Sequence record: MN850574.1
DNA: 64,000 bases
Source of the DNA: Escherichia phage kaaroe
Reading direction: 5' to 3' (one strand)
How positions within the stretch are numbered: the first letter of the stretch is position 1; each line of letters starts with the position of its first letter. This document shows, in pieces, positions 20,064 through 57,320 of the stretch. Position numbers and translations under genes: made by a program. The notes beneath the pieces were generated by a model that had not been told where the DNA came from, did no database searches, and saw nothing but the letters and a program-made list of their open reading frames with translations.

Positions 20064-20096
20064 ATAATGCCCTAAGATAACTATGACAGTGTACTC

Positions 20097-20336
20097 TTAT
20101 TTAGGTAGTTGACTATCACTAGGTTTATCTTGCTCGTTACTATCTTCTGACTGATCTTTATTAAACTCCTTATAAAGTTCTTCCACAAAACGATCATCAA
20201 TTGGCGTATTGGTATAAGCCGCAAGACGACGAGCGCAATAGAAGAAAATTTTAGTGAGCATCTTTTCACTAATTAACTTTGACAATAATTTCATTCCGAA
20301 ATTAGACAAAGCACCAATGACGATATTATAGACCAT
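20097..20336 (-). CDS. hypothetical small protein between gene 37 and holin
   Basis: SD AAGGAGA; hydrophobic N-terminus; occupies the position of gene 38 but is only 79 aa. Confidence 0.5.
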   Translation of the reverse strand: MVYNIVIGALSNFGMKLLSKLISEKMLTKIFFYCARRLAAYTNTPIDDRFVEELYKEFNKDQSEDSNEQDKPSDSQLPK

Positions 20337-20376
20337 AGCCGTTTCTCCTTAGTAGTTCCCTTCCCTGGGAGTTTCC

Positions 20377-23139: not shown

Positions 23140-23185
23140 TTTATAAAATCCTTAAACGGTTATTAGAATAATATTATTTAGAAAA

Positions 23186-23204
23186 GCGGGGATTGTCTCC
23201 CCGC
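23186..23204 (-). terminator. hairpin (possible attenuator) between genes 36 and 37
   Basis: GCGGGGAGACAATCCCCGC followed by TTTTC on minus strand. Confidence 0.4.
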
Positions 23205-23209
23205 TAAAA

Positions 23210-24700: not shown

Positions 24701-24734
24701 AAAGTAACCTCAAAAAATTAGTTATAGTTCCGAG

Positions 24735-24742
24735 TATTTATA
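24735..24742 (-). promoter_or_regulatory. T4-type late promoter (TATAAATA)
   Basis: Minus-strand TATAAATA about 35 nt upstream of gene 36 ATG. Confidence 0.7.
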
Positions 24743-24872
24743 GAATGTTAACAAAATATCGCTTCGCGACGTGCCGTAGGCACTGGCTATTTTTTAACCG
24801 AAACAAATTTCTATTATTCTAAAGATCTTTCTTCGTTTTGGTTACATTTTAACCAACTGTATAAAAAATAAA

Positions 24873-24896
24873 GCCGACCACATGGGTCGGCTTGTT
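24873..24896 (-). terminator. rho-independent terminator after gene 35
   Basis: GCCGACCCATGTGGGTCGGC hairpin followed by TTTATTTTTT on minus strand. Confidence 0.7.
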
Positions 24897-24903
24897 AAAA
24901 ATG

Positions 24904-26043
24904 TTAATCAACATCGAACTCTTTAAAGTTGTTGGATGTGATGTGTTTATTATCTCTGGGTAGTTTAAGAAGACTCATTACAGGGTTAGTAAAATCACCG
25001 TTATCCTGAATATGAGTTGTTCTAACACCATTAACACCAAATGAAGTAGGACCAGTAGTTTTGACAACTCCACTGATCGGCGTTATTAGTATGTTTCTAA
25101 TTTTAACAATACCTTCATTGGAGTTGGTTGGATATCTGATACAACCAGTTACTACACTATCAACTCCTTCCGGTACGGTATAGACGGCTTCAAACTTTTC
25201 CCATTGGTCTTTTTTGCTGGCATTGTATCGAACACCAGTTTGATATTGTCCATCGGTGAAGTAGTTGTGATAGAAACGCGCTGTTACGTTGGCTGCGGCT
25301 GCGGCACTATCACGGAACAATTCAAAGGATATTGATAGTTTGTCACCTGCCTTTATGTTAAAATCCTCAAGTGGGGCGCTGGTCTCATCATGAGGCCATT
25401 GTATTAGCTCGAAATGTTCGGCATCTTCGCTAACATACTCAACCGGATAATCTAAAAATCGTTGTGGTGTTCCTGTTATAGCAAGATCATCTATAGTATC
25501 ATAGACTTTCTCAATTTGTATAGATGAATCTTGTCCTTCCCCGTGAGTTGCTTGCATCCCTTCGCACACAATTTTACCCATTTTAGTAGAATAAATTGCT
25601 GCATATGATACACGAGGCATTTGCTGTAGCAAAATGTGATTCGGGAATGATACAGATCCCAGCTTAGAGAATACACCATCACTGATCGGATCTGCAAACA
25701 ATTCTCCATGCGTTGCCATCGCAATGATATAGTCACCTTTCAGCAAAGAAAGATAATCACGCATTGCCAAAACAGCACCGCGACCATAGAATACCTTTTC
25801 TTCGTGTAGTTGTCCAGTTGGAGTAAGAACTTTAAAATTTAGGCCATTTTCATAGCCAGTGCCAACGATCTCCACTCCATTAAATCTAATCCTTGCTGGT
25901 TTGGTAGAATCCGCATTAGATCCGCGCACTTCCAGCTTATACATCACAGAGTTATTTTCTGAAATGCTGGTAAATGTCGCAGAGTCTTCGTCGAAATGCG
26001 CAAACCTAATTCCAGTGTTGCGTAATTCTATATCTTGTGTCAT
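24904..26043 (-). CDS. 35: long tail fibre hinge protein gp35
   Basis: SVMYKLEVRG, VSYAAIYSTK, SFGVNGVRT resemble T4 gp35; position between 34 and 36. Confidence 0.75.
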   Translation of the reverse strand: MTQDIELRNTGIRFAHFDEDSATFTSISENNSVMYKLEVRGSNADSTKPARIRFNGVEIVGTGYENGLNFKVLTPTGQLHEEKVFYGRGAVLAMRDYLSLLKGDYIIAMATHGELFADPISDGVFSKLGSVSFPNHILLQQMPRVSYAAIYSTKMGKIVCEGMQATHGEGQDSSIQIEKVYDTIDDLAITGTPQRFLDYPVEYVSEDAEHFELIQWPHDETSAPLEDFNIKAGDKLSISFELFRDSAAAAANVTARFYHNYFTDGQYQTGVRYNASKKDQWEKFEAVYTVPEGVDSVVTGCIRYPTNSNEGIVKIRNILITPISGVVKTTGPTSFGVNGVRTTHIQDNGDFTNPVMSLLKLPRDNKHITSNNFKEFDVD

Positions 26044-26051
26044 AATAACCC

Positions 26052-26067
26052 CATAGGGGGCTTTCGC
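26052..26067 (-). other. GNRA-tetraloop hairpin GGGGGCGAAAGCCCCC between genes 34 and 35
   Basis: Perfect 6-bp G/C stem with GAAA loop on the minus strand; identical element at 37780-37795 (+). Confidence 0.5.
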
Positions 26068-26076
26068 CCCCTTTAA

Positions 26077-29000
26077 TTAGTCTTCCCAGATAAAGTCTAC
26101 GGTACGAGTCAGATTATTGGCGATGATTTTAACATTACCAACTTTGATCCAATCACGAACCGTCATAGAGTTCATTAAACCACCTTCTGCAACTACTGCC
26201 CCGATTTCCTGAGCGGTAGGCTTATTCTGTTTGGTGTAAATTTCACCCCATGCTGTCCATTGACCACCAGTACCGGAACGGATATAATGTTTATGAGTAC
26301 CATCAGGGGACCAAAGCTGGGTAAGCCCGTCCGCGTCAGTACCCCATTGCATCAGAGTACCGTTTTTCTTCTCTGGATAAGTTTCTTTGATGTTCTGGGT
26401 AGTAACTCGCATATTCCAGAAACCGATGTTACCGATTGCCGGAGCGGTTGCCGCGCTAGCTTCATGCTTAACAGAAACAATAGGCGCATTATCCATAGTC
26501 AGCTTACCGACCATTGTATCGCCAGCATTCTTAACAAACTGACGGTTAAGAACTTCGTCGGCGTTTCCTGCGTGTACGATCTGATATTTCTGTCCGGCGA
26601 TCTCTGTAGTTAACGTTTGATGACCTGCCTTGATGTTAACACTTCCACCGTGACCGATATTCAGCATACCATCTGAGGAACGAGTCATTGCCGGATTAGA
26701 CTGGTCAACTATGTATAAACCGCCTTGTTTCGCATACAGGTTACGACCTGCAATAAAGTCTCTATATGCTGTCGCGTCGCCATTGTGTTTCATAGCAAAG
26801 GCGTAATGCTCAACGACTCCACCATCATTGATTTTACCGAAAGCGATAGCATCACTATCAACAACTTGCGCTGTTCCAGTACCACCAACGATAATAGACC
26901 AAGAGTTTTTCATGCCTTCCGATGCGGTTGTGCCATGCAGAGTAATTCCGGTGTGACCGTCAACTCCACGCTCACCCAACACCAGATGACCATTACTCGG
27001 AACATCGGTCGAGTTCTTAGTCACAGACAGAGTTTCAAAGGAACCTGATTTTAAGCACTCTAAATCGCCCTTCACGTTAACGTTTTTATTAAACGTGTAA
27101 TTGCTCTCTATGGTCTGATCAATGTCTCTACGCGCCCATTTAGCGGCCTCTACGTTACCCAATTTCAAACTATTCTGAGCGGTTGCCATCTTAGGTAAGA
27201 AATTAGCAAGTGCGTAGTTTAATCCTTTAGGGGTAACAGCAATTCCGTCATGCTGGTAGTTTCCTAGTTCTTGAGTAGAACCTTGCAGATTATCACCAAC
27301 AAAACAGTTTTCCTGAGTAGCAACTTTCAAGAAGCCACGACGCGCTTCGGTTGCTTTCCATGTATCCTCTGTCTGAACAACATATTTGAAGTTCTTCGGA
27401 GAAATTGCTACATTGTCCATAATACCAGCCACGGTTTCGGCTTGAGTACCAACTCGGATAATACCTTCTTTACCTTCGGTGGCCTTTTTGCCTTGCAGCT
27501 TTTTAGGCGTGATGATTGTAGTATCATCTTGACCAGCGTCAGTAAGCTGAGTAGTCGCAACTTTAGCGACACCTTTTGTATCTTCGGTTGCATCCAGACC
27601 GCTGATCATGATACCTTGCCACAAATCACCAGTAAGGTTAAGCCCCTGAGTCGGATCTACTTTCAAACGCTGTGCATTCTCAAAGAAGGTTTTAATCTTC
27701 AATGGGGTAGAAATGCGATCATCGTCACGACCTGCGTCAAATTCCGGCTGAGTTGCAATTTCTGCTAAACCGTGTAAAGTTTCCGTTGCGCGGCGAGTAT
27801 GCAACTTTTTAGGCGTGATGATATGGTTATCACTTTGACCTAAGTTTGTTTCTTCCTGAGTTGCAATTTCAGCGATACCAGTGCGCGATTCGGTAGCAGT
27901 ACGTTTCGTTAGCGTGCGAGTCGTGATGAGTAAAGCATCTTGCTGGGTTGATTCTGTAGCCCCTTGCACTTCCGCGTCAGTTGCCAGATAGCCAACACCA
28001 CGGGAAGTTTCGGTCGCCTTGACTTCGTTGATGTTTTTTGGCGTAACAATTTTAGCATGGTCATTGATGTTATAGATCCCTGTACCAGCTTCGCCACGTC
28101 GAGCGGCAGCACTGCCGCCAGCCTGAACAATTTCAGCAATACCAGCGAGATCTTCGGAAGCGCGACGTTCTTCTAATTTCTTAGGAGTAATAGCGCGGGT
28201 ATCGTCTAAACCTTCATTGGTTTCGTGCTGGGTTGCAATTTCCATCACACCACGACGGGCTTCGGTAGCAACACAGTCATTTAACTTTTTAGGCGTAACG
28301 ATAACATCATCCAGGAAGTTGGAACCAGTATCTTGATGCGTTTCCGCTTGAGTCGCAATGCGAGCAATACCGCGTCGAGTTTCGTTGGCGGTTTTATTAG
28401 CCAGCATTTTTGGTGTTACTGCAACTTCGTCGCTAGGATTCTCTTCATGGTTTTTATTCGTTTCAGTTTGGGTAGCCAGTGCAATTACACCAACACGATC
28501 TTTACGAGTCGGATCTACTCGTTCTACAATCGGGTGAGCATGTGCCACCAACCAGTATTTCTTACCATCATCACCTTCTGAATAAGAGAACTCCAGATAA
28601 GGTACATAATCATTTGCAGCGTTGAAAGACAATTCAGATACTCCCGTCCATGTATCGGTCCCATTGAATGGGTACTCGCTACGCTTAGGAAACTGAACCA
28701 TGTTTTTCTGCATAAGGATTTTTGTATCCTCTGTGGCGGTGATAATACGGCAATTCTGGTTTCCGTTCATATACTGCATAGAAACTTGAATACGATCACC
28801 CGGCTCGACATTGGTCGGCAGCGTCAGAGTAACATCACGACCACCAAATACAGCAACATAGCTATTAGGTTGCAAGCGAGTGTCATCGATGATCGGTTTA
28901 AGACGAACAGACTGATCACCATCCCACAAACGCCATAAGTTTTCCGTCTTGTCAAAGATGAATACACCATGACCGCTACGCTTACCGATAATCTCTTTTA

Positions 29001-29817
29001 GACCGGACGTGCCAATTGATTGTTCTTCTGCGTGCTCATGAACTTTAACCGTAACGTGGTTGGTTGCGGTTAATCCGTCAAGGTCTGTAGTCTGGATCAT
29101 GTCGCCATTGTTGGCAAACTTAGGAAGCACTAAGGTAATATTACCCAACGAACTACGACGAAATACCTGATCACCATTCTGCATTTGAATAGCATCAATC
29201 GCTGGCTGTGCGTACACACCGCGTGGCTCTGTTCCTGTCTGATAAACATGCCAACGATTACGAACAAAGATGAAATAGTTCATTGCATACGGGGTAGTGC
29301 AATACCATTTTCGGTTGTACACATTACCGTTATGGTAAAACTCATGTCCTGTACTCAAGAACGATAATTCGTTAACACCACACTTGCCACCGATATCTTT
29401 TACTGTTATAGTGTCTCCCTCTGCTGGTTTAGTTGGCATAGAGAAAGTCAAGTTTGCAAATTGACCATCTGCTGCGATATAATCACCAGACTGTAAAGGA
29501 GTATCACCGGAAGTTGCTGCAATATAATCCCAACGTGGGTCCGTGCGCAGTGCTTGCCATTTAGTCGGGTCAAAATCACCTGCTGGCTTTGTGATATCTT
29601 CTTTTGCATAATACGGACGGTTTTGATAGATTGTAGTTCCGTATTGATCATAACCGCGAGTTGTGTCATACTGAGTAATACCATTATGGTAATTGAAAAA
29701 TTCAACGTTGACCGCATCGGTGTTGACATTCTTATCAGCCAATGCTACATTGACGACCTTTTCATTACCAGCGTCAAAGCCAAATGTGGCCTTGAAATGT
29801 TGAGAAAAATCTGCCAT
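26077..29817 (-). CDS. 34: long tail fibre proximal subunit gp34
   Basis: KPAGDFDPTKWQALRTD, LTLPTNVEPGD, FPKRSEYP, RRGIARIATQ, ISTPLKIKT and C-terminal VKIIANNLTRTVDFIWED match T4 gp34. Confidence 0.93.
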   Translation of the reverse strand: MADFSQHFKATFGFDAGNEKVVNVALADKNVNTDAVNVEFFNYHNGITQYDTTRGYDQYGTTIYQNRPYYAKEDITKPAGDFDPTKWQALRTDPRWDYIAATSGDTPLQSGDYIAADGQFANLTFSMPTKPAEGDTITVKDIGGKCGVNELSFLSTGHEFYHNGNVYNRKWYCTTPYAMNYFIFVRNRWHVYQTGTEPRGVYAQPAIDAIQMQNGDQVFRRSSLGNITLVLPKFANNGDMIQTTDLDGLTATNHVTVKVHEHAEEQSIGTSGLKEIIGKRSGHGVFIFDKTENLWRLWDGDQSVRLKPIIDDTRLQPNSYVAVFGGRDVTLTLPTNVEPGDRIQVSMQYMNGNQNCRIITATEDTKILMQKNMVQFPKRSEYPFNGTDTWTGVSELSFNAANDYVPYLEFSYSEGDDGKKYWLVAHAHPIVERVDPTRKDRVGVIALATQTETNKNHEENPSDEVAVTPKMLANKTANETRRGIARIATQAETHQDTGSNFLDDVIVTPKKLNDCVATEARRGVMEIATQHETNEGLDDTRAITPKKLEERRASEDLAGIAEIVQAGGSAAARRGEAGTGIYNINDHAKIVTPKNINEVKATETSRGVGYLATDAEVQGATESTQQDALLITTRTLTKRTATESRTGIAEIATQEETNLGQSDNHIITPKKLHTRRATETLHGLAEIATQPEFDAGRDDDRISTPLKIKTFFENAQRLKVDPTQGLNLTGDLWQGIMISGLDATEDTKGVAKVATTQLTDAGQDDTTIITPKKLQGKKATEGKEGIIRVGTQAETVAGIMDNVAISPKNFKYVVQTEDTWKATEARRGFLKVATQENCFVGDNLQGSTQELGNYQHDGIAVTPKGLNYALANFLPKMATAQNSLKLGNVEAAKWARRDIDQTIESNYTFNKNVNVKGDLECLKSGSFETLSVTKNSTDVPSNGHLVLGERGVDGHTGITLHGTTASEGMKNSWSIIVGGTGTAQVVDSDAIAFGKINDGGVVEHYAFAMKHNGDATAYRDFIAGRNLYAKQGGLYIVDQSNPAMTRSSDGMLNIGHGGSVNIKAGHQTLTTEIAGQKYQIVHAGNADEVLNRQFVKNAGDTMVGKLTMDNAPIVSVKHEASAATAPAIGNIGFWNMRVTTQNIKETYPEKKNGTLMQWGTDADGLTQLWSPDGTHKHYIRSGTGGQWTAWGEIYTKQNKPTAQEIGAVVAEGGLMNSMTVRDWIKVGNVKIIANNLTRTVDFIWED

Positions 29818-29845
29818 TATTGGGTCTCCTTTTATAGTATGTTCA

Positions 29846-29853
29846 TATTTATA
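29846..29853 (-). promoter_or_regulatory. T4-type late promoter (TATAAATA)
   Basis: Minus-strand TATAAATA about 30 nt upstream of gene 34 ATG in the divergent 34/rnh intergenic region. Confidence 0.7.
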
Positions 29854-29891
29854 AAATAAGGCTTGATAGAAACAAAAGAGGATGATATATT

Positions 29892-30077
29892 ATGGTTAAA
29901 GTTGATTTGTCAGAAGGTGCAAAATGGGTAGTTGACAGAATCCCTGATAAGGATTACAATTATTTCCGCGCCGAATTAAACAATGCAATTCTGCGAGTTA
30001 TGGAGAAGTACGGGTATGACCGTGAAGTATCTAACTCGTTTGGCGAATATGTTGTTGTGAGAGTGGAGAGAACTTAA
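29892..30077 (+). CDS. hypothetical protein
   Basis: SD AAGAGGATGA before ATG. Confidence 0.45.
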   Translation: MVKVDLSEGAKWVVDRIPDKDYNYFRAELNNAILRVMEKYGYDREVSNSFGEYVVVRVERT

Positions 30078-48568: not shown

Positions 48569-49037
48569 AATTGATATCTATGCGGGTGGACCTTATCCAT
48601 CGGGTGAATTGAGTAATTTCAATAAAAGACCATTCCGTCTATTTGGTTGCGATATTAACAGCACAGAAGGATTTTTACAGGGGCTAAGATTTAAGAACCC
48701 TCAGAGACAAAGAGAAATCTTTTTGATGCACGGTGGCAAAGCAAAAAGAACCGGAAGAACTGAAAAGATTGAGAATCACATGTTATATTTTCAGGGTCGC
48801 CAGATTCATCGAATGAGTGAGCATTATTACAGACTGGTACATCTGGCATTTGTTACGATGGCACGGAATAACCCAGAATTTTGTAAAGCATTACTCTCTA
48901 CCGGAAATAAGAAATTACGTCATAGCATAGGTGGAACTGATCCGTTAAAGACTATATTGACTGAATCGGAATTTTGTAGTATCCTCAATGATATTCGTGA
49001 ACGTTTAACAAAACGAGGTGAAAATGTCAATTCTTAA
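48558..49037 (+). CDS. NADAR-domain (YbiA/DUF1768-like) protein
   Basis: IDIYAGGPYPSGELSNFNKRPFRLFGCDINSTEGFLQGLRF parallels the YbiA N-terminal SNF...EH.FQ..KF core. Confidence 0.65.
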   Translation: MTSEIDIYAGGPYPSGELSNFNKRPFRLFGCDINSTEGFLQGLRFKNPQRQREIFLMHGGKAKRTGRTEKIENHMLYFQGRQIHRMSEHYYRLVHLAFVTMARNNPEFCKALLSTGNKKLRHSIGGTDPLKTILTESEFCSILNDIRERLTKRGENVNS

Positions 49038-50520
49038 TATCATTAATCAGCTTGCAGCAACAGACAAAACATCGCTGAAAGAAAAGATTCTGAAAGAATC
49101 CGCGAGCAATGAAACGCTGAAAGAATGCTTTTATCTGGCATATTGCAAACAGGTTACGTTTGGCGTAAAGAAATACGATAAACCGTCTCGCTATTCGTCT
49201 GTATTGTCTTTATCCGGTGCATTACAGGTCTTTAAAAATAAACTTGCCACGCGTCAAGTAACTGGTAATGCAGCATTACAGCTAGTTACCGATACTCTGA
49301 CTTGCTTGTCAGAAAATGATGCTAAAGTTGCAATGATGGTCCTGAATCGTGATCTGGAATGTGGTTGTTCCGCTACTACTGCAAACAAGGTATGGAAGAA
49401 ACTGATCCCTCAGCAACCGTGCCACCTTGCATCGTCATGTTCTGATAAGACTATTGCTAATATCAAGTATCCGGCGTATGCACAACTTAAAAGCGATGGC
49501 GCTCGTGGTATGGCTGATATTGACGGGGAAACATTAGCAATCTATACCCGCTCAGGTAATACCTATCAAGGGCTTGATGATTTGTTTGCGGTTTTAGAGC
49601 GTCTACGAGGCCGTGGAATTGTTCTAGATGGCGAATTGGTATATATGCCTACCCTTTCGCAAACACCAGCGCAGAACTTCGTTGAAAGCGTTTATGATGG
49701 TACTCTGTCATGGATATTTGAAGAAGAGGAAATGCCATTAACGCCAGTAGCGGAAGCAGTGAAAGAATCCGTTGTTGCAGATCGTCAGACCGGAAATGGT
49801 ATCCTCAACAAATCACTTAAAGGAACTATTCCAAAAGAAGAAGCCCAATGTATTGTTTACACTGTCTGGGATGTTATCGACCGTGATGTGTATTACGGAA
49901 ACGAGAAAGCAACGAAGCAATATAAAGATCGATTCGAAGAACTAAAACAGATTGTTGAAGAACTTAACGATCCTCGTGTTCAGATCATCGAAAACACTGT
50001 AGTTAACAATATCGATGAAGCTCGCGAAGTATATCATCGTTATGTCAACATGGGCTTAGAAGGTATTATCCTTAAAAATTTACATGGTGTATTTGAAGAT
50101 CGCCGTAGTAAAGATCAGGTTAAATTTAAAGAAGTGATTGACTTCGACGCGGAAATTGTTGATGTATATCCGCATAGTAAAGACCCCAATAAGGTAGGCG
50201 GTTTTACTGTCCGTAGTGCGTGCGGACGAATGATGACTAACACCGGATCGGGATTAACCGACACTACAACCGAAAAAGGTGATGATGGTATCGAACGTGT
50301 AATTCCGTTCGATCGTCGAAATGAACTCGACCGAGAAATGTTATGGGCTGACCGTCATAACCTGATTGGAAAAGTCATTGAGATGACATGCAACGGGTAT
50401 ATCCGCAGCAAATCACGTAAAGAAGATGAACCGGAGTTCTCTTTATTTCTCCCAATCATCAAACGTATTCGCTACGACAAGACCACTGCAAATACAGTAA
50501 AAGAGGTATTCGATGTGTGA
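49024..50520 (+). CDS. 30: ATP-dependent DNA ligase gp30
   Basis: AQLKSDGARG, LDGELVY, ANKVWKKLIPQQP, GLEGIILKN, GSGLTD match T4 DNA ligase. Confidence 0.93.
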   Translation: MSILNIINQLAATDKTSLKEKILKESASNETLKECFYLAYCKQVTFGVKKYDKPSRYSSVLSLSGALQVFKNKLATRQVTGNAALQLVTDTLTCLSENDAKVAMMVLNRDLECGCSATTANKVWKKLIPQQPCHLASSCSDKTIANIKYPAYAQLKSDGARGMADIDGETLAIYTRSGNTYQGLDDLFAVLERLRGRGIVLDGELVYMPTLSQTPAQNFVESVYDGTLSWIFEEEEMPLTPVAEAVKESVVADRQTGNGILNKSLKGTIPKEEAQCIVYTVWDVIDRDVYYGNEKATKQYKDRFEELKQIVEELNDPRVQIIENTVVNNIDEAREVYHRYVNMGLEGIILKNLHGVFEDRRSKDQVKFKEVIDFDAEIVDVYPHSKDPNKVGGFTVRSACGRMMTNTGSGLTDTTTEKGDDGIERVIPFDRRNELDREMLWADRHNLIGKVIEMTCNGYIRSKSRKEDEPEFSLFLPIIKRIRYDKTTANTVKEVFDV

Positions 50521-50989
50521 TAATGAAGGGGCGAAAGCCCCTAAACCTAAAAAATTGTCAAAGAAAGAGCAACGCCAGATCCTGAAAATGAAATATGGTG
50601 GACGTTGTGCCTATTGTGGCGAGGAACTAGGGGATCGCTGGCACGCGGACCACATCAAACCAGTATTGCGACGCTCAAAGGTAGTCTATGATGAAAATGG
50701 ACGAATTGCCCGTAATGATGATGGATCATGGAAATATAAGGTTGTAGGAATGCATAAACCGGAGCATGATATACTTGATAACATGAATCCGGCGTGTGTG
50801 CAATGCAATCTTTATAAAAGCTGTATGGGCTTAGAATACTGGCGTAAGTGTATACGCGAGAACTTCCAGAAGTACATTCAGCGCAATATGGGATTGCGAG
50901 CGGCTAAACGCTTTGGCTTGCTGTCAATCCACGACCAGCCAGTAGAATTTTATTTCGAAAAGTACGATCGCGAGCATCAAGAAAAATAA
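50513..50989 (+). CDS. HNH endonuclease
   Basis: CAYCGEEL...HADHIKPV...N...CVQCNLYK zinc-finger HNH motif; start overlaps ligase stop. Confidence 0.75.
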   Translation: MCDNEGAKAPKPKKLSKKEQRQILKMKYGGRCAYCGEELGDRWHADHIKPVLRRSKVVYDENGRIARNDDGSWKYKVVGMHKPEHDILDNMNPACVQCNLYKSCMGLEYWRKCIRENFQKYIQRNMGLRAAKRFGLLSIHDQPVEFYFEKYDREHQEK

Positions 50990-51002
50990 TTCAAAAAGTT
51001 GT

Positions 51003-51031
51003 TGACAGGGGATCGGTGATCCCCTATACTA
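51003..51031 (+). promoter_or_regulatory. early promoter cassette with palindromic spacer
   Basis: TTGACA-GGGGATCGGTGATCCCC-TATACT, conserved leader, ATG 51076. Confidence 0.65.
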
Positions 51032-51075
51032 CACACATCAAAACGAAACACACTTTCTTAAACGGAGAATCAAAA

Positions 51076-51387
51076 ATGAAATACATCGTAACGCTGCCAA
51101 TGATTGACTTCGACGGAACCATGAACACCCAGAAGACCATGAGCGCGGAGAACCAACTGAAAAACGCTACCCTGATTCGTGAAGTTCGCAAGGCACTGGC
51201 AAAAGAATTTAACACCAAAATTCATTCTGTAACTGGCGAACGTTTCGCGGATCATCTTGATATCAACATCAAACCAGTGCGCAACGGTGTTATCTCTGTA
51301 ACAACCAGCCGCCCACATGCTGACGCTGATAATCTGACCGCTCGCGCAGAAGATGTAATTATGACCGTTATCATGGAAAAACTTTAA
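51076..51387 (+). CDS. hypothetical protein
   Basis: GGAGAATCAAAA-ATG cassette. Confidence 0.55.
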   Translation: MKYIVTLPMIDFDGTMNTQKTMSAENQLKNATLIREVRKALAKEFNTKIHSVTGERFADHLDINIKPVRNGVISVTTSRPHADADNLTARAEDVIMTVIMEKL

Positions 51388-51395
51388 AAAAGTTG

Positions 51396-51424
51396 TTGAC
51401 AGGGGATCACCGATCCCCTATACT
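51396..51424 (+). promoter_or_regulatory. early promoter cassette with palindromic spacer
   Basis: TTGACA-GGGGATCACCGATCCCC-TATACT, ATG 51459. Confidence 0.65.
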
Positions 51425-51458
51425 ACACACATACCGAAACGAACTAGGAGAATCAATT

Positions 51459-51638
51459 ATGAACTTCAACGAAATCATCGCTAAAATCCGCTACAACGAA
51501 GAAACCATTGAACTGATGCAAAACAATATCACCAATGGCTATATGATTGCAGCGTCACAAGAAATCATTGATTTGACGGTAGCAGAAAATGCTCAGTTGA
51601 AACATCAACTTTCAACGGCTGGCGTGATTGTTATGTAA
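51459..51638 (+). CDS. hypothetical small protein (59 aa)
   Basis: Conserved leader/RBS then ATG 51459. Confidence 0.5.
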   Translation: MNFNEIIAKIRYNEETIELMQNNITNGYMIAASQEIIDLTVAENAQLKHQLSTAGVIVM

Positions 51639-51655
51639 TAAAGAGAGGTGACTAA

Positions 51656-51958
51656 ATGGCAAAAGTTCAGGTAGGTGAGGTCTTCAAAATGGAAGACCAC
51701 ACCGTGGAAGAGATGAAAGGCGCAGTATTGAAAGTAATTAATTCAATGTGGCGTAGTGTGCTTTACATCAACTTTATCGACGGTGATGTGTGGTGGGCTA
51801 GCGATAGCGATAAATGGGATATCAAGTTCTACAAAGGTCATACTCACTGGTTAGGATCAGAGGATGTTGTAGAAGTTCTTGCGGTTGATGTTATGCCAGG
51901 AGAGATCGAGAATCTTAGCGGAACAGCAAAAGAAGCATTGACACGCCATTTTGCGTAA
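51656..51958 (+). CDS. hypothetical protein, member of HxHW...AVDV paralog family
   Basis: GHTHWLGSEDVVEVLAVDV motif shared with four other ORFs (53007, 53709, 54034, 54731). Confidence 0.55.
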   Translation: MAKVQVGEVFKMEDHTVEEMKGAVLKVINSMWRSVLYINFIDGDVWWASDSDKWDIKFYKGHTHWLGSEDVVEVLAVDVMPGEIENLSGTAKEALTRHFA

Positions 51959-52014
51959 TGTAGTATAACAATAATCGGGAGGGTAATACTCTCCCACAAA
52001 TTGAGGATAATATT

Positions 52015-52206
52015 ATGTGTGGTCTTAAAATGGTTGCTGAATATAAGCGAACTGGTAATGTTATGATGTATCGACGCAATACCAACGAAGAATGGAAACC
52101 TTCAAACCGCATTAAATCCATCCAGACGTTTATGAATAACATAAAAGAAAACCTTTTCGTTAAGCGTGCTGGTGTTGGACATTGGGAAGTTTACGAAGCT
52201 GTATAA
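52015..52206 (+). CDS. hypothetical protein
   Basis: TTGAGGATAATATT-ATG cassette; upstream dyad GGGAGGGTAATACTCTCCC. Confidence 0.5.
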   Translation: MCGLKMVAEYKRTGNVMMYRRNTNEEWKPSNRIKSIQTFMNNIKENLFVKRAGVGHWEVYEAV

Positions 52207-52222
52207 TTTTGAGGAAAATACT

Positions 52223-52516
52223 ATGGAACATACTAATTTGTTTGTAGCCGAACCTTTCGTTGAAGGCAATAAAAATCTGGCTAATACCGTTATTCTTTAT
52301 GAAGATTGGATCTTTTACATCGACGAGCATTTAGATGTATTTTGTCGCACAGATAAAAGTGACCAATTTCCAATTGAAAAAAATCGAACATCAAATCATT
52401 GGTACGGCGGGAATGACGAAACCGACCTAGCTATTGTTCTAGAATCAGGCGTAGAATCTGAACATGCCAATGAAGTGGCAGACAAATTTATGAAATACGC
52501 ATATAAAGCATTATAA
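52223..52516 (+). CDS. hypothetical protein
   Basis: SD GAGGAAAATACT then ATG 52223. Confidence 0.5.
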   Translation: MEHTNLFVAEPFVEGNKNLANTVILYEDWIFYIDEHLDVFCRTDKSDQFPIEKNRTSNHWYGGNDETDLAIVLESGVESEHANEVADKFMKYAYKAL

Positions 52517-52521
52517 AGTTG

Positions 52522-52550
52522 TTGACAGGGGATCGGTGATCCCCTATAAT
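52522..52550 (+). promoter_or_regulatory. early promoter cassette with palindromic spacer
   Basis: TTGACA-GGGGATCGGTGATCCCC-TATAAT, ATG 52583. Confidence 0.65.
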
Positions 52551-52582
52551 GCACACATACCAACGAGATAGGAGAATCAAAA

Positions 52583-52750
52583 ATGTTCCAGACTAAAGCA
52601 GAATGCGAAGCATACATTGTAGCAAACCACGGTGAAGACTACCTGAAATTCGATATCGTAGTAGCACAGAAGATCACCGGAATGGTTGCAAAATATCTGG
52701 GTGTTAAAGAAGGTTACTATCCGAGCAACGCACCGGAAATCAACAAATAA
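52583..52750 (+). CDS. hypothetical small protein (55 aa), near-identical paralog of 55863-56030
   Basis: MFQTKAECEAYIVANHGEDYLKFDIVVAQKITGMVAKYLGVKEGYYPSNAPEINK versus MFETKAACEAYIIETHGEDYLKFDIVVAQKIVGMVAKYLGVKEGYYPSNAPEINK. Confidence 0.55.
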   Translation: MFQTKAECEAYIVANHGEDYLKFDIVVAQKITGMVAKYLGVKEGYYPSNAPEINK

Positions 52751-52753
52751 TAG

Positions 52754-52782
52754 TTGACAATGATTAAAGGGAGTAGTAAGAT
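52754..52782 (+). promoter_or_regulatory. early promoter cassette
   Basis: TTGACA-17-TAAGAT with GGGAGTA/ TACTC remnant dyad, ATG 52815. Confidence 0.55.
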
Positions 52783-52814
52783 ACTCACATCAAGACAACA
52801 AACGGAGAATCAAA

Positions 52815-52994
52815 ATGAAAGCTATCGAAGTTCAGAAGTACATGGAACTCATCATTGAAGGTAAAGCACATACAGTATTGACTACCCACGTAGGATATGA
52901 TAAAAATGTGCATATGCTGGTAGACAATATCGGCTGGATGAAGTTTAACCCTAACGAGAACGTACAAGCTCAAGAAATGACCATCCCTTTCTAA
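52815..52994 (+). CDS. hypothetical small protein (59 aa)
   Basis: GGAGAATCAAA-ATG cassette. Confidence 0.5.
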   Translation: MKAIEVQKYMELIIEGKAHTVLTTHVGYDKNVHMLVDNIGWMKFNPNENVQAQEMTIPF

Positions 52995-53006
52995 GAGGAA
53001 TATATT

Positions 53007-53285
53007 ATGATGCGAATTACTGCAACGCTGGATAAGACACACAAAGAAAGATTTTTCGGTATGATCTTAAAAACGCCGATTTTCGATAATTACCTTTATG
53101 TTGACTATGAAGGTCACATTAGCTATAAATGTAAAAATGATATTCGTGATTCCTTTGGTGATAAATCACAAGCTGATATTCATGACCACTGGTGGAACCA
53201 TGACGAACCTTTACGAGTTATCGCAGTTGATGTAAAAACAACAAAAGAAGCTGATAAGGTAGTGAATGATTATGAGCAAATTTAA
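53007..53285 (+). CDS. hypothetical protein, HxHW...AVDV paralog family
   Basis: IHDHWWNHDEPLRVIAVDV motif. Confidence 0.55.
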   Translation: MMRITATLDKTHKERFFGMILKTPIFDNYLYVDYEGHISYKCKNDIRDSFGDKSQADIHDHWWNHDEPLRVIAVDVKTTKEADKVVNDYEQI

Positions 53286-53529
53286 AGAATACAAAGCATA
53301 TCAACAGATCCTGCGAGTATACGCACCAGAGTTCGCCGAAAAGATGATGGAAGATGCATCAAAATGCCCGTCCTTTTCTGGAAACAAAAACCATTATTCT
53401 ACTCGTATTGTATCATGGAAAGAAACATGTTACACTCAACAGTGGATAAACGTTTTCTCAAAAACAATTGGTTGGAATGGTGTTAATTATGGGTATTCAG
53501 AGTCAATTCAAAGATTATCGAGTGTATAA
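53266..53529 (+). CDS. hypothetical protein (paralog pair with 53489-53707)
   Basis: FKEYKAY...AEKMMEDASKCPSF...NK..IV.W shared with next ORF. Confidence 0.5.
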   Translation: MIMSKFKEYKAYQQILRVYAPEFAEKMMEDASKCPSFSGNKNHYSTRIVSWKETCYTQQWINVFSKTIGWNGVNYGYSESIQRLSSV

Positions 53530-53707
53530 AGAAATCTGTGCTGTATTTGATGAGAAAACAGCAGATAAAATGATGAAAGAAGCGTCACAATGTTCATCTT
53601 TTGTTGATAACAAAGATTTAAGAGTAAATGAGATCGTGTGCTGGAGCGACACGAAACATGAAATTGTATGGCGTACCGTGTACTATAGCCGCGACCGAGG
53701 ATTATAA
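53489..53707 (+). CDS. hypothetical protein (paralog pair with 53266-53529)
   Basis: FKDYRVY...ADKMMKEASQCSSF; ATG 53489 inferred from paralog alignment. Confidence 0.45.
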   Translation: MGIQSQFKDYRVYKEICAVFDEKTADKMMKEASQCSSFVDNKDLRVNEIVCWSDTKHEIVWRTVYYSRDRGL

Positions 53708-53708
53708 A

Positions 53709-54029
53709 ATGAAATTAACTAAAAAGATTTTCCCAGAATTGCGTAACTGTCTGTTACTGGTTACTGAATATAAACCTTATACGATCTATTTGTACGTTGA
53801 TGAAAATCTGAAAATCCGTTACTATGATTATACGTCTCCAGTGATGAAATCATTTGCTCACTCGATCGCAAATAACTGTATGAATCACAATCATTGGGTA
53901 TCAGAAACGGATGACGATGCGTCAGAAGTTGTAGTGGTTGCATGGAATCTATCACCAGCGGAAGCAGATCAAGCACGCATTAAGCATTATGCGAAAAACA
54001 ATTGGTTTGACCTTATAAATGAGGACTAA
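53709..54029 (+). CDS. hypothetical protein, HxHW...AVDV paralog family
   Basis: MNHNHWVSETDDDASEVVVVAWNL motif variant. Confidence 0.5.
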   Translation: MKLTKKIFPELRNCLLLVTEYKPYTIYLYVDENLKIRYYDYTSPVMKSFAHSIANNCMNHNHWVSETDDDASEVVVVAWNLSPAEADQARIKHYAKNNWFDLINED

Positions 54030-54033
54030 TATT

Positions 54034-54312
54034 ATGTTCAAAGTAGGTGATAAGTTTATTCTTAGTCGTGATATTCTCCCTAATCTGAAAGGTTGTATCA
54101 TCAATCCTAGTAAAAATTCATGGTTTTATCTGTTTATCGATGATGATCTAAATGTACGCGCCGAATATAAAGAAGGTCTTCGTACTGGTCTTGGTTTCTT
54201 TCACGATCATGACCATAGCCATTGGCTAAACGGTGGATTCGAAGCAACGGTGATAGCGGTTGATGTGGATTACACAAACATCATAGAAAAATATCAAAAA
54301 ATTATTTTATAA
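54034..54312 (+). CDS. hypothetical protein, HxHW...AVDV paralog family
   Basis: HDHDHSHWLNGGFEATVIAVDV motif. Confidence 0.55.
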   Translation: MFKVGDKFILSRDILPNLKGCIINPSKNSWFYLFIDDDLNVRAEYKEGLRTGLGFFHDHDHSHWLNGGFEATVIAVDVDYTNIIEKYQKIIL

Positions 54313-54318
54313 AAAGTG

Positions 54319-54347
54319 TTGACATAAGATCGGGTGTATAGCATAAT
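54319..54347 (+). promoter_or_regulatory. early promoter cassette with dyad over -10
   Basis: TTGACA-17-CATAAT; perfect inverted repeat GGGTGTAT/ATACACCC brackets -10; ATG 54394. Confidence 0.6.
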
Positions 54348-54393
54348 ACACCCATCGAAACGAGATACACTTTCTAACTAGGAGAATCAAATT

Positions 54394-54681
54394 ATGGCAT
54401 ACATTACTATCACTCTGAAAGTTAACAAATTTGCTCACGCTGCACACGAAACCGATAATGCAATCCGTAACAACAAGTTCGCACGTCTGGTACGCGATGC
54501 AGTAGCTAAAGAGTTCAACTTCAAATTTGCAGATGGTAAAGTTATCACTAAATGGACTCATGACGGCGAAACTAAAGTAGAACTTGCTGACAACTTCGCA
54601 AATCAGGAATATGCACACCGTCGCATTAATGAAATCATCAGCGATGAACTCTACTACGGTGTACAGGAAGGACTGTTTTAA
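54394..54681 (+). CDS. hypothetical protein
   Basis: Conserved leader/RBS, followed by terminator. Confidence 0.55.
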   Translation: MAYITITLKVNKFAHAAHETDNAIRNNKFARLVRDAVAKEFNFKFADGKVITKWTHDGETKVELADNFANQEYAHRRINEIISDELYYGVQEGLF

Positions 54682-54684
54682 TAT

Positions 54685-54708
54685 ACGGGGCGTTAAGCCC
54701 CCTTTTCA
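54685..54708 (+). terminator. rho-independent terminator
   Basis: GGGGCGTTAAGCCCC hairpin followed by CTTTTCATC; same hairpin recurs at 58887. Confidence 0.65.
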
Positions 54709-54730
54709 TCCAACTATTGAGGATAATACT

Positions 54731-55039
54731 ATGAAAGATAATATCTTTGAATTTACCCGCGAAAATCTCCCAATGTTCCGAAAGTCTCTGCTTAAACTAG
54801 AGAACAGCAATTACGATGTATATTTTTACATCACCGAAGATCTAGAGATCCTTTACGCTGATTACCCAGGTCCGATCCGTACCTTCGAAGAAGCATCGCA
54901 GTATAAAAATGTTCACGGTCATGAGCACTGGTTACGAGAAAACCCAGGTCGCAAGAAAGCACGCGTTAAAGTGATTGCGATTGACGTAACACCAGCATAC
55001 GCCGACCGGATTGCACTGAATGATTATTTGTCTAAATGA
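54731..55039 (+). CDS. hypothetical protein, HxHW...AVDV paralog family
   Basis: HGHEHWLRENPGRKKARVKVIAIDV motif. Confidence 0.55.
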   Translation: MKDNIFEFTRENLPMFRKSLLKLENSNYDVYFYITEDLEILYADYPGPIRTFEEASQYKNVHGHEHWLRENPGRKKARVKVIAIDVTPAYADRIALNDYLSK

Positions 55040-55047
55040 TTTTATTA

Positions 55048-55075
55048 GCCGACCTTAGCGTCGGCTTTTTTATTG
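55048..55075 (+). terminator. rho-independent terminator
   Basis: AGCCGACC-TTAG-CGTCGGCT followed by TTTTTTATT. Confidence 0.75.
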
Positions 55076-55095
55076 CATAAAATTAAAAAAAAGAA

Positions 55096-55124
55096 TTGAC
55101 ACCAGATCACGCCTATAGCATAAT
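55096..55124 (+). promoter_or_regulatory. early promoter cassette
   Basis: TTGACA-17-CATAAT, leader ACACCCATCGAAACGAG.., ATG 55165. Confidence 0.6.
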
Positions 55125-55164
55125 ACACCCATCGAAACGAGATACCACTTAGGAGAATCAAACA

Positions 55165-55434
55165 ATGGCACTGACTAAAACCACTACCAACTTTGCAAAA
55201 CGTCACGGCTTCGACATTGAAATCAATAGCTTTAACGATTACACTCTTCTGTGTGTATATGAAATCGAAAATGATTGCGAGTGGATGTTCAGCTATCGCG
55301 TAAACGAAGACGGATCTTTCACTTGGAACGGAAATATCTATCTTGCACAGGAAGTAAAAGAAGAACTTCCGGCGAATATCAAAGATGAGAAACATTTACG
55401 TCAAGTTTTAAAATTTATTTCTGAAAATATCTAA
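55165..55434 (+). CDS. hypothetical protein
   Basis: AGGAGAATCAAACA-ATG cassette. Confidence 0.55.
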   Translation: MALTKTTTNFAKRHGFDIEINSFNDYTLLCVYEIENDCEWMFSYRVNEDGSFTWNGNIYLAQEVKEELPANIKDEKHLRQVLKFISENI

Positions 55435-55442
55435 AAAAGTTG

Positions 55443-55471
55443 TTGACACCAAAGTAAGAACATAGCATAAT
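55443..55471 (+). promoter_or_regulatory. early promoter cassette
   Basis: TTGACA-17-CATAAT, ATG 55505. Confidence 0.6.
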
Positions 55472-55504
55472 ACACCCATACCGAAACGAACTGGAGAATC
55501 AAAA

Positions 55505-55786
55505 ATGAAATTCATCAAAGCAACCGAAATCCTGAAAAACAAAGAAGCATACATCGGAAACATCGTTGGTATGAACATTCGCGGCGCTGGTAGCCAGTGG
55601 ACCAAACTGGTTGATGTTAAAGCTAAAGGCGATAAAATTGAGTTCACTGTAAAAATGCTTACTCATAACGCACATATGGGTATCAAGACAAAAACGATGG
55701 CAGCAGATAAAAGCATTAACTATCAGGGTCTGGGTGATTGGCTGAACTGGTGCAAAATGCACAATATCGAAACTAATCACGAATAA
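55505..55786 (+). CDS. hypothetical protein
   Basis: Conserved leader/RBS. Confidence 0.55.
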   Translation: MKFIKATEILKNKEAYIGNIVGMNIRGAGSQWTKLVDVKAKGDKIEFTVKMLTHNAHMGIKTKTMAADKSINYQGLGDWLNWCKMHNIETNHE

Positions 55787-55800
55787 TTTTAAAAAAGTTG

Positions 55801-55829
55801 TTGACGGGGATCGGGAGATCCCCTATAAT
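55801..55829 (+). promoter_or_regulatory. early promoter cassette with palindromic spacer
   Basis: TTGACG-GGGATCGGGAGATCCCC-TATAAT, ATG 55863. Confidence 0.65.
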
Positions 55830-55862
55830 ACACACATAACGAAACGAAATAGGAGAATCAAA

Positions 55863-56030
55863 ATGTTCGAGACTAAAGCAGCATGTGAAGCATATATCAT
55901 TGAAACCCACGGCGAAGATTATCTGAAATTTGACATTGTAGTAGCACAGAAGATTGTAGGGATGGTTGCAAAATATCTGGGTGTTAAAGAAGGTTACTAT
56001 CCGAGCAACGCACCAGAAATTAACAAATAA
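55863..56030 (+). CDS. hypothetical small protein (55 aa), near-identical paralog of 52583-52750
   Basis: See 52583 entry; about 90 percent identical at protein level by eye. Confidence 0.55.
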   Translation: MFETKAACEAYIIETHGEDYLKFDIVVAQKIVGMVAKYLGVKEGYYPSNAPEINK

Positions 56031-56044
56031 TTTTATAAAAAGTA

Positions 56045-56073
56045 TTGACAGGGGAGGATAACTCCCCTACAAT
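56045..56073 (+). promoter_or_regulatory. early promoter cassette with palindromic spacer (operon 56114-58346)
   Basis: TTGACA-GGGGAGGATAACTCCCC-TACAAT, ATG 56114; no further promoter until 58355. Confidence 0.65.
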
Positions 56074-56113
56074 ACAACCATCAAGACGAGATACCACTTA
56101 GGAGAATCAAACA

Positions 56114-56365: not shown

Positions 56366-56607
56366 AAAGAAAATTAATTAAACGCAATAAGGAATTTCTT
56401 AATAACTGCATTAAGGCCGCTAATGGTTGGCCTTTGTGCCTCTTCCTTTATGATTGGTATTCTAAACAATCAGTTGAGGAAACACGACACTATAAGAAGA
56501 TCAGAAAAGAATCATATACAAAACAAGGCCGCATTAACGGACTTTACTTAATGTGGCACGGCAAAGAACCTTCTAAAATCTGCGTTGGATTAAAGGGGCG
56601 TATATGA
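56362..56607 (+). CDS. hypothetical protein (operon gene 2, GTG start)
   Basis: GTGA overlap with upstream stop; ORF track 56362-56607. Confidence 0.45.
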   Translation: MKRKLIKRNKEFLNNCIKAANGWPLCLFLYDWYSKQSVEETRHYKKIRKESYTKQGRINGLYLMWHGKEPSKICVGLKGRI

Positions 56608-57320
56608 AACAAAAATTAATATTCTGTAACTTTGACGGATCGGGGATAATGGGGCTAGAATGGGCTAAAGCAGGTCATAAGGTGATCTGCTTTAATGCTG
56701 ACGATGGCGACCACGGCACATACAAAAAGTATAATACCAGATTTGAACACCCAAACATTACCTATGTAAACACATGGATTGATTTGAACTGGCTAGAAAG
56801 AGCAATGGACCTTGAATGGGGGAAACCGGATATTATCTTTGCATTCCCACCGTGCACCAATTTAGCTGTTAGTGGCGCTGCACACTTTGAACGAAAGAAA
56901 CGAGAACAAGGACCATTGATTCAAGTTCATGATGTAAGGGCAGCTAAAATAACCGCTTATTTGGGTGAATGGCTAGGAGTTCCCTACATGATAGAGAATC
57001 CTGTAAGCGTTATCTCTAGCATGTGGCGTAAGCCTGATTACATGTTCCACCCGTGGGAATATGGCGGTTATTTGCCGGAAGATGATAAACATCCTACTTT
57101 TCCTGAGTATATCGCCGCCCGTGATATGTACCCGAAAAAGACTTGCTTATGGACCGGACAAGGCTTTATAATGCCAGAAAAGAAACCGTTGCAGATTAAT
57201 AAAGGGTACAGTAAACAGCATTCTAAGCTAGGCGGGAAAGGAACGAAAACAAAGACTATCAGGTCACTTACCCCGCGAGGATTCGCAAAGGCAGTATTTG
57301 AAGCAAATAAGGATCTATGA
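56604..57320 (+). CDS. C5-cytosine-methyltransferase-like catalytic core protein (operon gene 3)
   Basis: Motif-I-like FDGSGIMG, motif-IV-like FPPCTNLAVSG, motif-VI-like IENPVS; 238 aa, no obvious target-recognition domain. Confidence 0.45.
   Translation: MKQKLIFCNFDGSGIMGLEWAKAGHKVICFNADDGDHGTYKKYNTRFEHPNITYVNTWIDLNWLERAMDLEWGKPDIIFAFPPCTNLAVSGAAHFERKKREQGPLIQVHDVRAAKITAYLGEWLGVPYMIENPVSVISSMWRKPDYMFHPWEYGGYLPEDDKHPTFPEYIAARDMYPKKTCLWTGQGFIMPEKKPLQINKGYSKQHSKLGGKGTKTKTIRSLTPRGFAKAVFEANKDL

Follow-up and report, generated by a model that had tools for sequence, protein, structure and literature searches.

A six-member family of small proteins with a His-Trp motif in the early accessory region of Krischvirus phages

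Krischvirus phages (RB49, phi1, JSE, GEC-3S and relatives) serve as model phages and as components of therapy cocktails, and most of their early accessory genes are still blank. PeSL ("promoter-early stem-loop") cassettes are known from RB49 and phi1. PeSL206/205 of RB49 is a very strong promoter (~13,000 Miller units in a lacZ fusion), the hairpin of PeSL211/210 terminated as well as rrnB T1, and the region is one where cassettes shuffle and mini-circles form (PMC2839356). Together with the PeSLs, the ORFan cassettes in the hyperplastic regions of T4-type phages (Arbiol et al. 2010, PMC2839356; Comeau et al. 2014, PMC4122927) are the closest described system to the genes considered here, which come from a stretch of 64,000 nucleotides of Escherichia phage kaaroe (sequence record MN850574.1), called the window throughout. 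The region (RB49 ORFs 189-212) and the PeSL elements are the same, and close phages likewise differ by presence, absence and replacement of genes. Six of the genes in the window, however, form one protein family. Unlike individually PeSL-flanked ORFans, its members are mostly second or later genes of their unit, and beyond the PeSL cassettes alone, a directly adjoining pair in the window and a related metagenomic contig point to plain tandem duplication. It is firmly established that the six are real genes of the early accessory region and form a family that expanded long ago and is restricted to one lineage. Region and PeSLs are already published; the paralogy, the sixth member, the motif and the absence of a fold relative are undescribed in the literature found. 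Searches on Krischvirus paralogs and on RB49 anti-defence returned no description of the family, and looking up terms in PMC2839356 and PMC4122927 gave no mention of paralogy among these ORFans.

The six genes all lie on the plus strand. In order, they are member A (51656-51958, 100 amino acids, ortholog of RB49p208, motif HTHW at nt 51839-51850), member F (52223-52516, 97 amino acids, RB49p206, degenerate SNHW at nt 52391-52402), member B (53007-53285, 92 amino acids, RB49p203, HDHW at nt 53181-53192), member C (53709-54029, 106 amino acids, RB49p200, HNHW at nt 53886-53897 followed by the strand VVVVAWNL), member D (54034-54312, 92 amino acids, RB49p199, HDHDHSHW with its core at nt 54214-54225) and member E (54731-55039, 102 amino acids, RB49p197, HGHEHW with its core at nt 54920-54931). 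Identity to the RB49 proteins is 92% for A, 100% for B, 99% for C, 97% for D, 90% for E and 98% for F. C, D and E start at internal ATG codons of the longer open reading frames (ORFs) 53628-54029, 54019-54312 and 54584-55039, and the starts used for A, B, C, D and E are the annotated starts of the RB49 genes. C and D stand directly in tandem with a gap of 4 nt. The A protein in the window is a short allele; in RB49 and many relatives the loop immediately ahead of HTHW carries an insertion of 6-10 amino acids (for example EEGSLI; L001, 2176-2496). A first-pass annotation made from the sequence had described a family of five His-rich paralogs sharing an HxHW motif and a following hydrophobic strand. 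The five ORFs are indeed present on the plus strand at the coordinates it gave, with lengths of 92-106 amino acids, and they do belong together, but the count has to be raised to six by the gene at 52223-52516. The motif strings it gave for three of the genes had been rotated among them: HDHDHSHW...VIAVDV belongs to the ORF at 54034, HGHEHW...VIAIDV to that at 54731, and NHNHW...VVVAWNL to that at 53709.

Pairwise identity among the five original members is only 22-32%, the closest paralog of E being C (32% identity, z ~20). Smith-Waterman scores for the 10 pairs were compared with 1000 shuffles per pair; eight pairs scored above all of their shuffles (z = 5.7-20.3), and the weaker two were A-C (z 3.9) and B-C (z 2.2). 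In leave-one-out searches, a hidden Markov model (HMM) trained on four members was run against the 620 ORF segments of at least 40 amino acids in the window, and the omitted member was always the top non-training match (E 5.4e-6, 6.9e-10, 7.3e-13, 1.4e-9 and 2.5e-16). Across these 620 segments the pattern H.HW was counted five times, with all five in family members; residue shuffling gives 0.65 on average. The similarity announced in the first-pass annotation thus survives the shuffled-sequence control. It also extends over the full length of ~95 amino acids as mutual profile similarity, which is what a single superfamily calls for. A chance motif in unrelated or non-coding reading frames is the one reading that the low pairwise identity would favour, and it can be given practically no credence: it is refuted by the shuffles, the leave-one-out searches, the motif count and the ratios of nonsynonymous to synonymous substitution (dN/dS) described below, and purifying selection and conserved homologs in other phages also oppose it. 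The PHROGs database keeps the same proteins in five separate groups, all of "unknown function" (9345, 15972, 17255, 16486 and 15965), which the window proteins match at E 1e-49 to 1e-63. C and E alone share a group, and B and D touch that group weakly. RB49 ORFs 197, 199, 200, 203, 206 and 208, which make up five unannotated families there, are joined here into one superfamily.

The sixth member was recognised in the ORF 52145-52513 (RB49p206, start at 52223), which was the next match in every leave-one-out search (E 1.5e-4 to 0.058). Its motif reads SNHW and the subsequent strand AIVLESGV. A metagenomic protein, P0084 (HNHW, VEVLATNV), matches a profile built without F and is 37% identical to F (BLASTP 1e-19). 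At the F locus of PHB13, LF73P4, Phi1, Brandy and JK32 there is an allele, 69-71% identical, with a complete THNHW. Because of the leave-one-out matches, the P0084 intermediate and the THNHW allele at the same locus, F is a true member that has lost its first His in the window allele. Against the broad profile F scores 66 bits, a value that is not independent since F was among the training sequences. HMM searches of the 64-kb window found no members beyond these six.

The family is confined to one phage lineage. The region 51000-56100 of the window matches 58 deposited phages, all of them Krischvirus-type (T4-like, Straboviridae), with 98% identity to Escherichia phage FL37 and 96% to RB49. 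A word-indexed search of 5.8e9 proteins gave 75 clusters, and 63 clusters with a broader profile; the long contigs that bear them measure 160-176 kb, and the only names attached are those of phages or of E. coli assemblies that hold a phage genome. An exhaustive HMMER scan of 1.84e9 representatives returned only 17 proteins at E <= 1e-3, and a tblastn search of 50,697 phage records, with two distant members as queries, gave Krischvirus matches only. The ligase-alt region of T4 (30.x, alt.1) has no counterpart: the best T4 ORF in NC_000866 122-136 kb reached E 0.22 and 4.9 bits, and H.HW does not occur there. Two profile matches were dismissed. P0085, a repeat surface protein of 2878 amino acids without HW, is spurious, and P0083, a repeat protein of 218 amino acids, is probably unrelated. 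Four copies of (Y)HGHWLRQK(S/R)CI(T/V)VIGWD in P0083 match the motif block of the profile at E 2.5e-5 and resemble HxHW...VIAxD.

The distant members derive from uncultured relatives, and two contigs are informative about how the family arose. On the 2.1-kb contig L004, five family domains lie back to back in four adjoining genes. The gene order p209, A-like, p204, D-like(+), B-like, C-like is kept there, and the matching paralogs are 33-48% identical. One of the genes is a two-domain fusion, P0077 (L004 823-1434, metagenome SRR8048117), whose 203-amino-acid ORF carries the motifs DHNHWFG and NHNHWYS on either side of a Lys/Asp-rich linker and which apparently arose when two tandem genes lost the stop codon that separated them; it is seen on this single 2.1-kb contig. 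The 20-kb contig L002 has the order cd, 30.3, ligase, ORFans and two Alt-type ADP-ribosyltransferases, with two F-like members in the post-ligase region and a ligase 72% identical to that of the window. The paralog types A, B, C/E, D and F are already found in relatives whose members are only 30-50% identical. Since such distant contigs hold the same types, the types are older than the genus, and the expansion is old and maintained, not a recent burst. Given the 4-nt gap between C and D and the five domains on L004, the family probably originated by local tandem duplication, followed by upkeep as distinct types with whole alleles swapped between phages. Of the lineage-specific, arms-race expansion proposed in the first-pass annotation, the restriction to one lineage therefore stands (17 HMM matches, Krischvirus only), but the old paralog types and purifying selection do not fit an arms-race burst.

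Selection was assessed by pooled, gene-wide dN/dS against nine other Krischvirus genomes. The values are 0.07 for A, 0.23 for F, 0.20 for B, 0.24 for C, 0.17 for D and 0.23 for E, so every copy is under purifying selection; neighbouring ORFans range from 0.00 to 0.37, which encloses the family values. In eight of the nine, all six members are present at conserved positions. The ninth, JSE (NC_012740; L011 1871-2178 and 2588-3261), has E frameshifted into ORFs of 80 and 22 amino acids, and the position of D is taken by a second C-like gene with the motif GFANHNHWVEI, so that its family content is six intact genes plus two pieces of the frameshifted E. JSE is evidence from nature that a single copy can be lost or replaced. 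Divergent alleles at single loci are found for F (the five phages above), for B in Phi1 (57%) and for C in JSE (54%), and clustering at 90% gives 37 variants of E, 22 of A and 21 of F, compared with 5-11 for B, D and C. Allele replacement, the JSE frameshift and the microdiversity of E, F and A fit dispensable, adaptive accessory genes. Such patterns might also be read as showing no host-directed role at all, with the His and Trp stabilising the fold and the domain being either cargo of a recombination-prone PeSL region or phage-internal housekeeping. The cassette shuffling and mini-circles on record for the region (PMC2839356), three further pairs of small paralogs within these 5 kb and a JSE phage that is viable with a frameshifted copy would agree with this. 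It is nevertheless improbable, given that eight of nine genomes keep six copies and JSE has six intact genes, that dN/dS is well below 1, that the paralog types persist across a lineage split in which the ligase is only 72% identical, and that neutral cargo would decay under the head-full packaging limit.

The conserved features of the proteins were assessed over 19 representatives at 70% identity. Of the motif, all 19 keep the second His and the Trp, and about 80% have the first His as well. In the window, H-x-H occurs in five of six members; the first His is replaced in part of the F clade, by Ser in F of the window and by Asp in P0103. In general form, (H)-x-H-W is followed by a V-x-V-[IL]-A-x-[DN]-V strand and an E-A-D helix start, F of the window being the degenerate case. 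Other conserved features are hydrophobic (YLYID, V-x-V-L-A-x-D-V, and A-D at the helix start), the Asp of YID and the Asp of AVDV are each substituted in several members, and no invariant third metal ligand or Cys is present among the 19 representatives. Among E orthologs, HxHW is constant, while substitutions fall, among other places, immediately ahead of it and in the loop that follows. The six members have a pI of 4.5-6.3, a net charge of -1 to -11, 0-2 Cys and 3-5 His each; "His-rich" was too strong a word for proteins in which a run of His (HDHDHSH) is seen in D only. An AlphaFold2 (AF2) model of member E from a 15-sequence alignment reached a mean predicted local distance difference test (pLDDT) score of 83 and a predicted template modelling (pTM) score of 0.78. 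In this model the elements follow in the order beta, short helix, beta-beta-beta meander, helix, HxHW helical turn, beta and C-terminal helix, so the predicted structure is a compact alpha/beta domain, small (92-106 amino acids) and acidic. By eye, no signal peptide or membrane segment is seen, and the proteins are probably cytoplasmic.

The earlier suggestion that the His cluster forms a metal site is not supported by these data. With a variable first His and no invariant third ligand or Cys, a monomeric site is unlikely, and structure prediction did not bring one out: the AF2 model of E places the motif in a helical turn at pLDDT 64-73. A monomer offers at most two ligands, which are not even invariant, so a site would have to lie between subunits, and a dimeric site is speculation. 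Metal binding of this kind, in which H-x-H chelates Zn2+ or Ni2+, the site is completed across a homo- or heterodimer (2 x HxH giving four His) and the metal thereby either stabilises the oligomer or serves as a cofactor, is possible but somewhat unlikely; it would be compatible with a role in binding host factors. The frequency of H-x-H and the extra flanking His in D and E speak for it, and the natural fusion P0077 hints at domains working in pairs, although only one short metagenomic contig carries that fusion and a single-sequence AF2 model of it has a pLDDT of only 34. The Ser and Asp at the first His position, the replaceable Asp residues of YID and AVDV, the lack of an invariant third ligand and the scarcity or absence of Cys speak against it, as does the predicted helical turn, in which positions i and i+2 would face different sides (at low confidence there).

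Comparisons with known proteins gave no relative. Sequence searches of Pfam, NCBIfam and the PDB, with single proteins and with the family profile, found nothing significant, and there is no significant likeness in sequence or fold to known anti-defence proteins (Tad2/DUF2829, AcrIIA7 and others). Metal or catalytic motifs of the H-x-H type are found in cupins and in several other groups. In alpha-carbonic anhydrase the zinc is bound by an H-F-H-W segment on a beta-strand together with a third His ~23 residues on, in a beta-sheet domain of ~260 amino acids, and this likeness to the family motif is a lead towards metal binding. Such a zinc site was rejected for the family, which has no conserved third His, no Pfam or PDB sequence match and no fold match. 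HIT proteins (H-h-H-h-H-h-h with hydrophobic h, in a dimerising alpha+beta fold of ~110 amino acids) were rejected too: the family has T, D, N, S or E at x, only D and E possess a further His in register, and there is no Pfam match. Neither the HxHxDH motif with distal His/Asp and the alpha-beta/beta-alpha sandwich of at least ~200 amino acids of the metallo-beta-lactamase fold nor the complete beta1-alpha1-alpha2-beta2-4-alpha3-beta5-alpha4-beta6 fold and Q/RxxGxG/A acetyl-CoA loop of GNAT acetyltransferases was found. The name KOW / Spt5-NusG attached to the metagenomic ortholog P0069 could not be reproduced, as neither a KOW profile match nor an SH3-like barrel was seen, and a match of P0069 to an archaeal dCTP deaminase/dUTPase (E 0.4) was treated as chance, since it rests on a GGF segment confined to D-type members. 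The proteins could still be small enzymes or sponges for nucleotide-type molecules, with the His dyad as acid/base or with a pocket of His and a stacking Trp, and with the six paralogs adapted to different substrates, for example RNA ends or the nucleotides of immune signalling. That the only invariant residues are His and Trp amid freely diverging sequence is typical of active or ligand sites, and the genes belong to the early accessory set. Against this, the domain is very small, its negative net charge is unfavourable for anionic nucleotides, and similarity in sequence or fold to 2H phosphoesterases, metallo-beta-lactamases, HIT proteins, RNases and known sponges is lacking, which leaves such a function doubtful.

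Every family member lies downstream of a near-perfect sigma-70 PeSL promoter. A repeat of ~63 nt occurs in eight copies within 5.8 kb (50976-51038, 51370-51432, 52496-52558, 54293-54355, 55083-55145, 55430-55492, 55775-55837 and 56019-56081), each with TTGACA, a 17-nt spacer and a TATAAT-like hexamer (11-12 of 12 matches). A hairpin of the type GGGGATC...GATCCCC fills the spacer in six of the eight, most clearly in five copies of repeat family D1. These are the PeSLs, the mobile regulatory elements published for RB49 and phi1: near-consensus sigma-70 promoters with a 17-nt spacer, in most copies a G-run/C-run stem-loop, and an AT-rich upstream part, intergenic in the hyperplastic region. Downstream of the cassettes is a conserved leader that ends in TAGGAGAATCAA and is followed by ATG. 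Because the cassettes recur, so do minus-frame "SFRWVYYAI" peptides in the ORF list. Three plus-strand cassettes head the family units. The one at 51370-51432 (TTGACA-17-TATACT, with the GGGGATC...GATCCCC spacer stem-loop) precedes p209 - A - p207 - F, the counterpart of PeSL206/205 at 52496-52558 (a perfect TTGACA-17-TATAAT) precedes p205 - p204 - B - p202 - p201 - C - D, and the one at 54293-54355 (TTGACA-17-CATAAT) precedes p198 - E. Right after E, at 55047-55066 on the plus strand, is an intrinsic-terminator-like hairpin, AGCCGAC...GTCGGCT with a T-run. As PeSL sigma-70 promoters head all the family units, early expression of the genes is a well-grounded inference; unmodified host RNA polymerase would transcribe them as soon as the cell is infected. 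The first-pass description of the family as early genes therefore holds by way of its promoters, of which PeSL206/205 is very strong by experiment in its RB49 form (PMC2839356).

The reading preferred here, at a probability of roughly 40%, is that each paralog is a non-essential, host-directed binding protein that would modulate or block a host factor, either in takeover or in counter-defence. It is favoured because the proteins are small, acidic, early, dispensable, allele-swapping and microdiverse, which is the usual profile of such phage proteins. All copies would have one functional patch in common, the invariant His-Trp, usually preceded by His-x, between two variable loops. An invariant patch framed in this way suggests a shared functional site with diverged specificity around it, so that different copies may recognise different partners through their diverged surroundings. 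The patch may hold a metal (possibly between two subunits) or a small ligand, or it may contact protein. The likeness to small acidic early phage inhibitors (T4 Arn, anti-CRISPRs, immunity proteins of the type VI secretion system (T6SS) type) is one of functional analogy only, with no significant sequence or fold similarity, and the invariant His/Trp patch is unusual for pure binders. Several points weigh against host-factor binding. Invariant polar residues are more typical of ligand or catalytic sites than of pure protein-protein inhibitors, no characterised inhibitor, anti-defence protein or enzyme could be detected that resembles the family in sequence or fold, and gene-wide dN/dS over the nine genomes gave no sign of positive selection. 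Early expression, too, is deduced from the promoters, and the HxHW turn is short and the lowest-confidence part of the AF2 model. A bolder version, in which a previously unrecognised fold family of counter-defence or takeover effectors combines a shared His/Trp site (an inter-subunit metal or a small-signal pocket) with six specificity surfaces as a panel of inhibitors, sponges or hydrolases against E. coli targets, is rather unlikely.

In more than 50 genomes the genes of this family are listed as hypothetical proteins. Six such "hypothetical proteins" from five unrelated database families turn out to be one conserved superfamily that is marked by an invariant His-Trp patch and lacks a known relative in fold, and scattered ORFans become a single tractable target. 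The family is of a familiar kind, namely multi-copy ORFans in phage hyperplastic regions; its fold may be new. If its members are host-directed effectors, they add a new protein family to the takeover and anti-defence repertoire of T4-type phages. If they are not, the locus still documents tandem duplication and allele swapping, beyond the excision of PeSL cassettes, as processes that fill a hyperplastic region.

The family genes sit in the hyperplastic accessory region that follows the DNA ligase and HNH endonuclease genes in Krischvirus phages. In the window, these are the DNA ligase gene (49018-50520, plus strand) and the HNH endonuclease gene (50513-50989, plus strand), which overlaps the last 8 nt of the ligase gene; on the other side lies a DNA methyltransferase gene (56604-57320, plus strand), and all genes from ligase to methyltransferase are on the plus strand. 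The endonuclease is likely of the homing type; its gene is at the same place in RB49, phi1 and JK32 and marks the start of the hyperplastic region. The RB49 counterpart consists of ORFs 189-213, every one of them labelled "hypothetical protein", flanked by DNA ligase gp30 and the HNH endonuclease on one side and the DNA methyltransferase on the other.

Duplication is common in this 5-kb region, as it holds three further paralog pairs (p210/p198, p202/p201 and p205/p191). A direct duplication of 172 nt with 87% nucleotide identity (52580-52751 and 55860-56031) encodes the RB49p205 and p191 proteins, of 55 amino acids each and 89% identical (phrog_8009), with one PeSL directly upstream of each; it is far younger than the HxHW duplications. 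The p202 (53266-53529) and p201 (53489-53707) genes are adjoining, overlapping paralogs with 40% identity, both in phrog_8471; p201 has alleles at 62% in most other Krischvirus and 40% in JSE, and p202 is 87 amino acids long in the window and RB49 as against ~70 elsewhere. The p210 (51076-51387) and p198 (54394-54681) proteins both match phrog_7474 (E ~1e-43), and their mutual BLASTP gives nothing at 1e-3. The p198 gene is directly upstream of member E, and p210 is two genes upstream of member A with p209 between. A fixed two-gene module of phrog_7474 and an HxHW gene was rejected, since p209 intervenes in the window and the order is reversed on L002, where the p198 homolog comes after, not before, a family member. 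In the window there are no tRNA genes and no Rfam matches. Finally, GC skew turns negative over ~20-30 kb of the window (20000-30000), which suggests that a block of minus-strand genes lies there in an otherwise plus-strand window.

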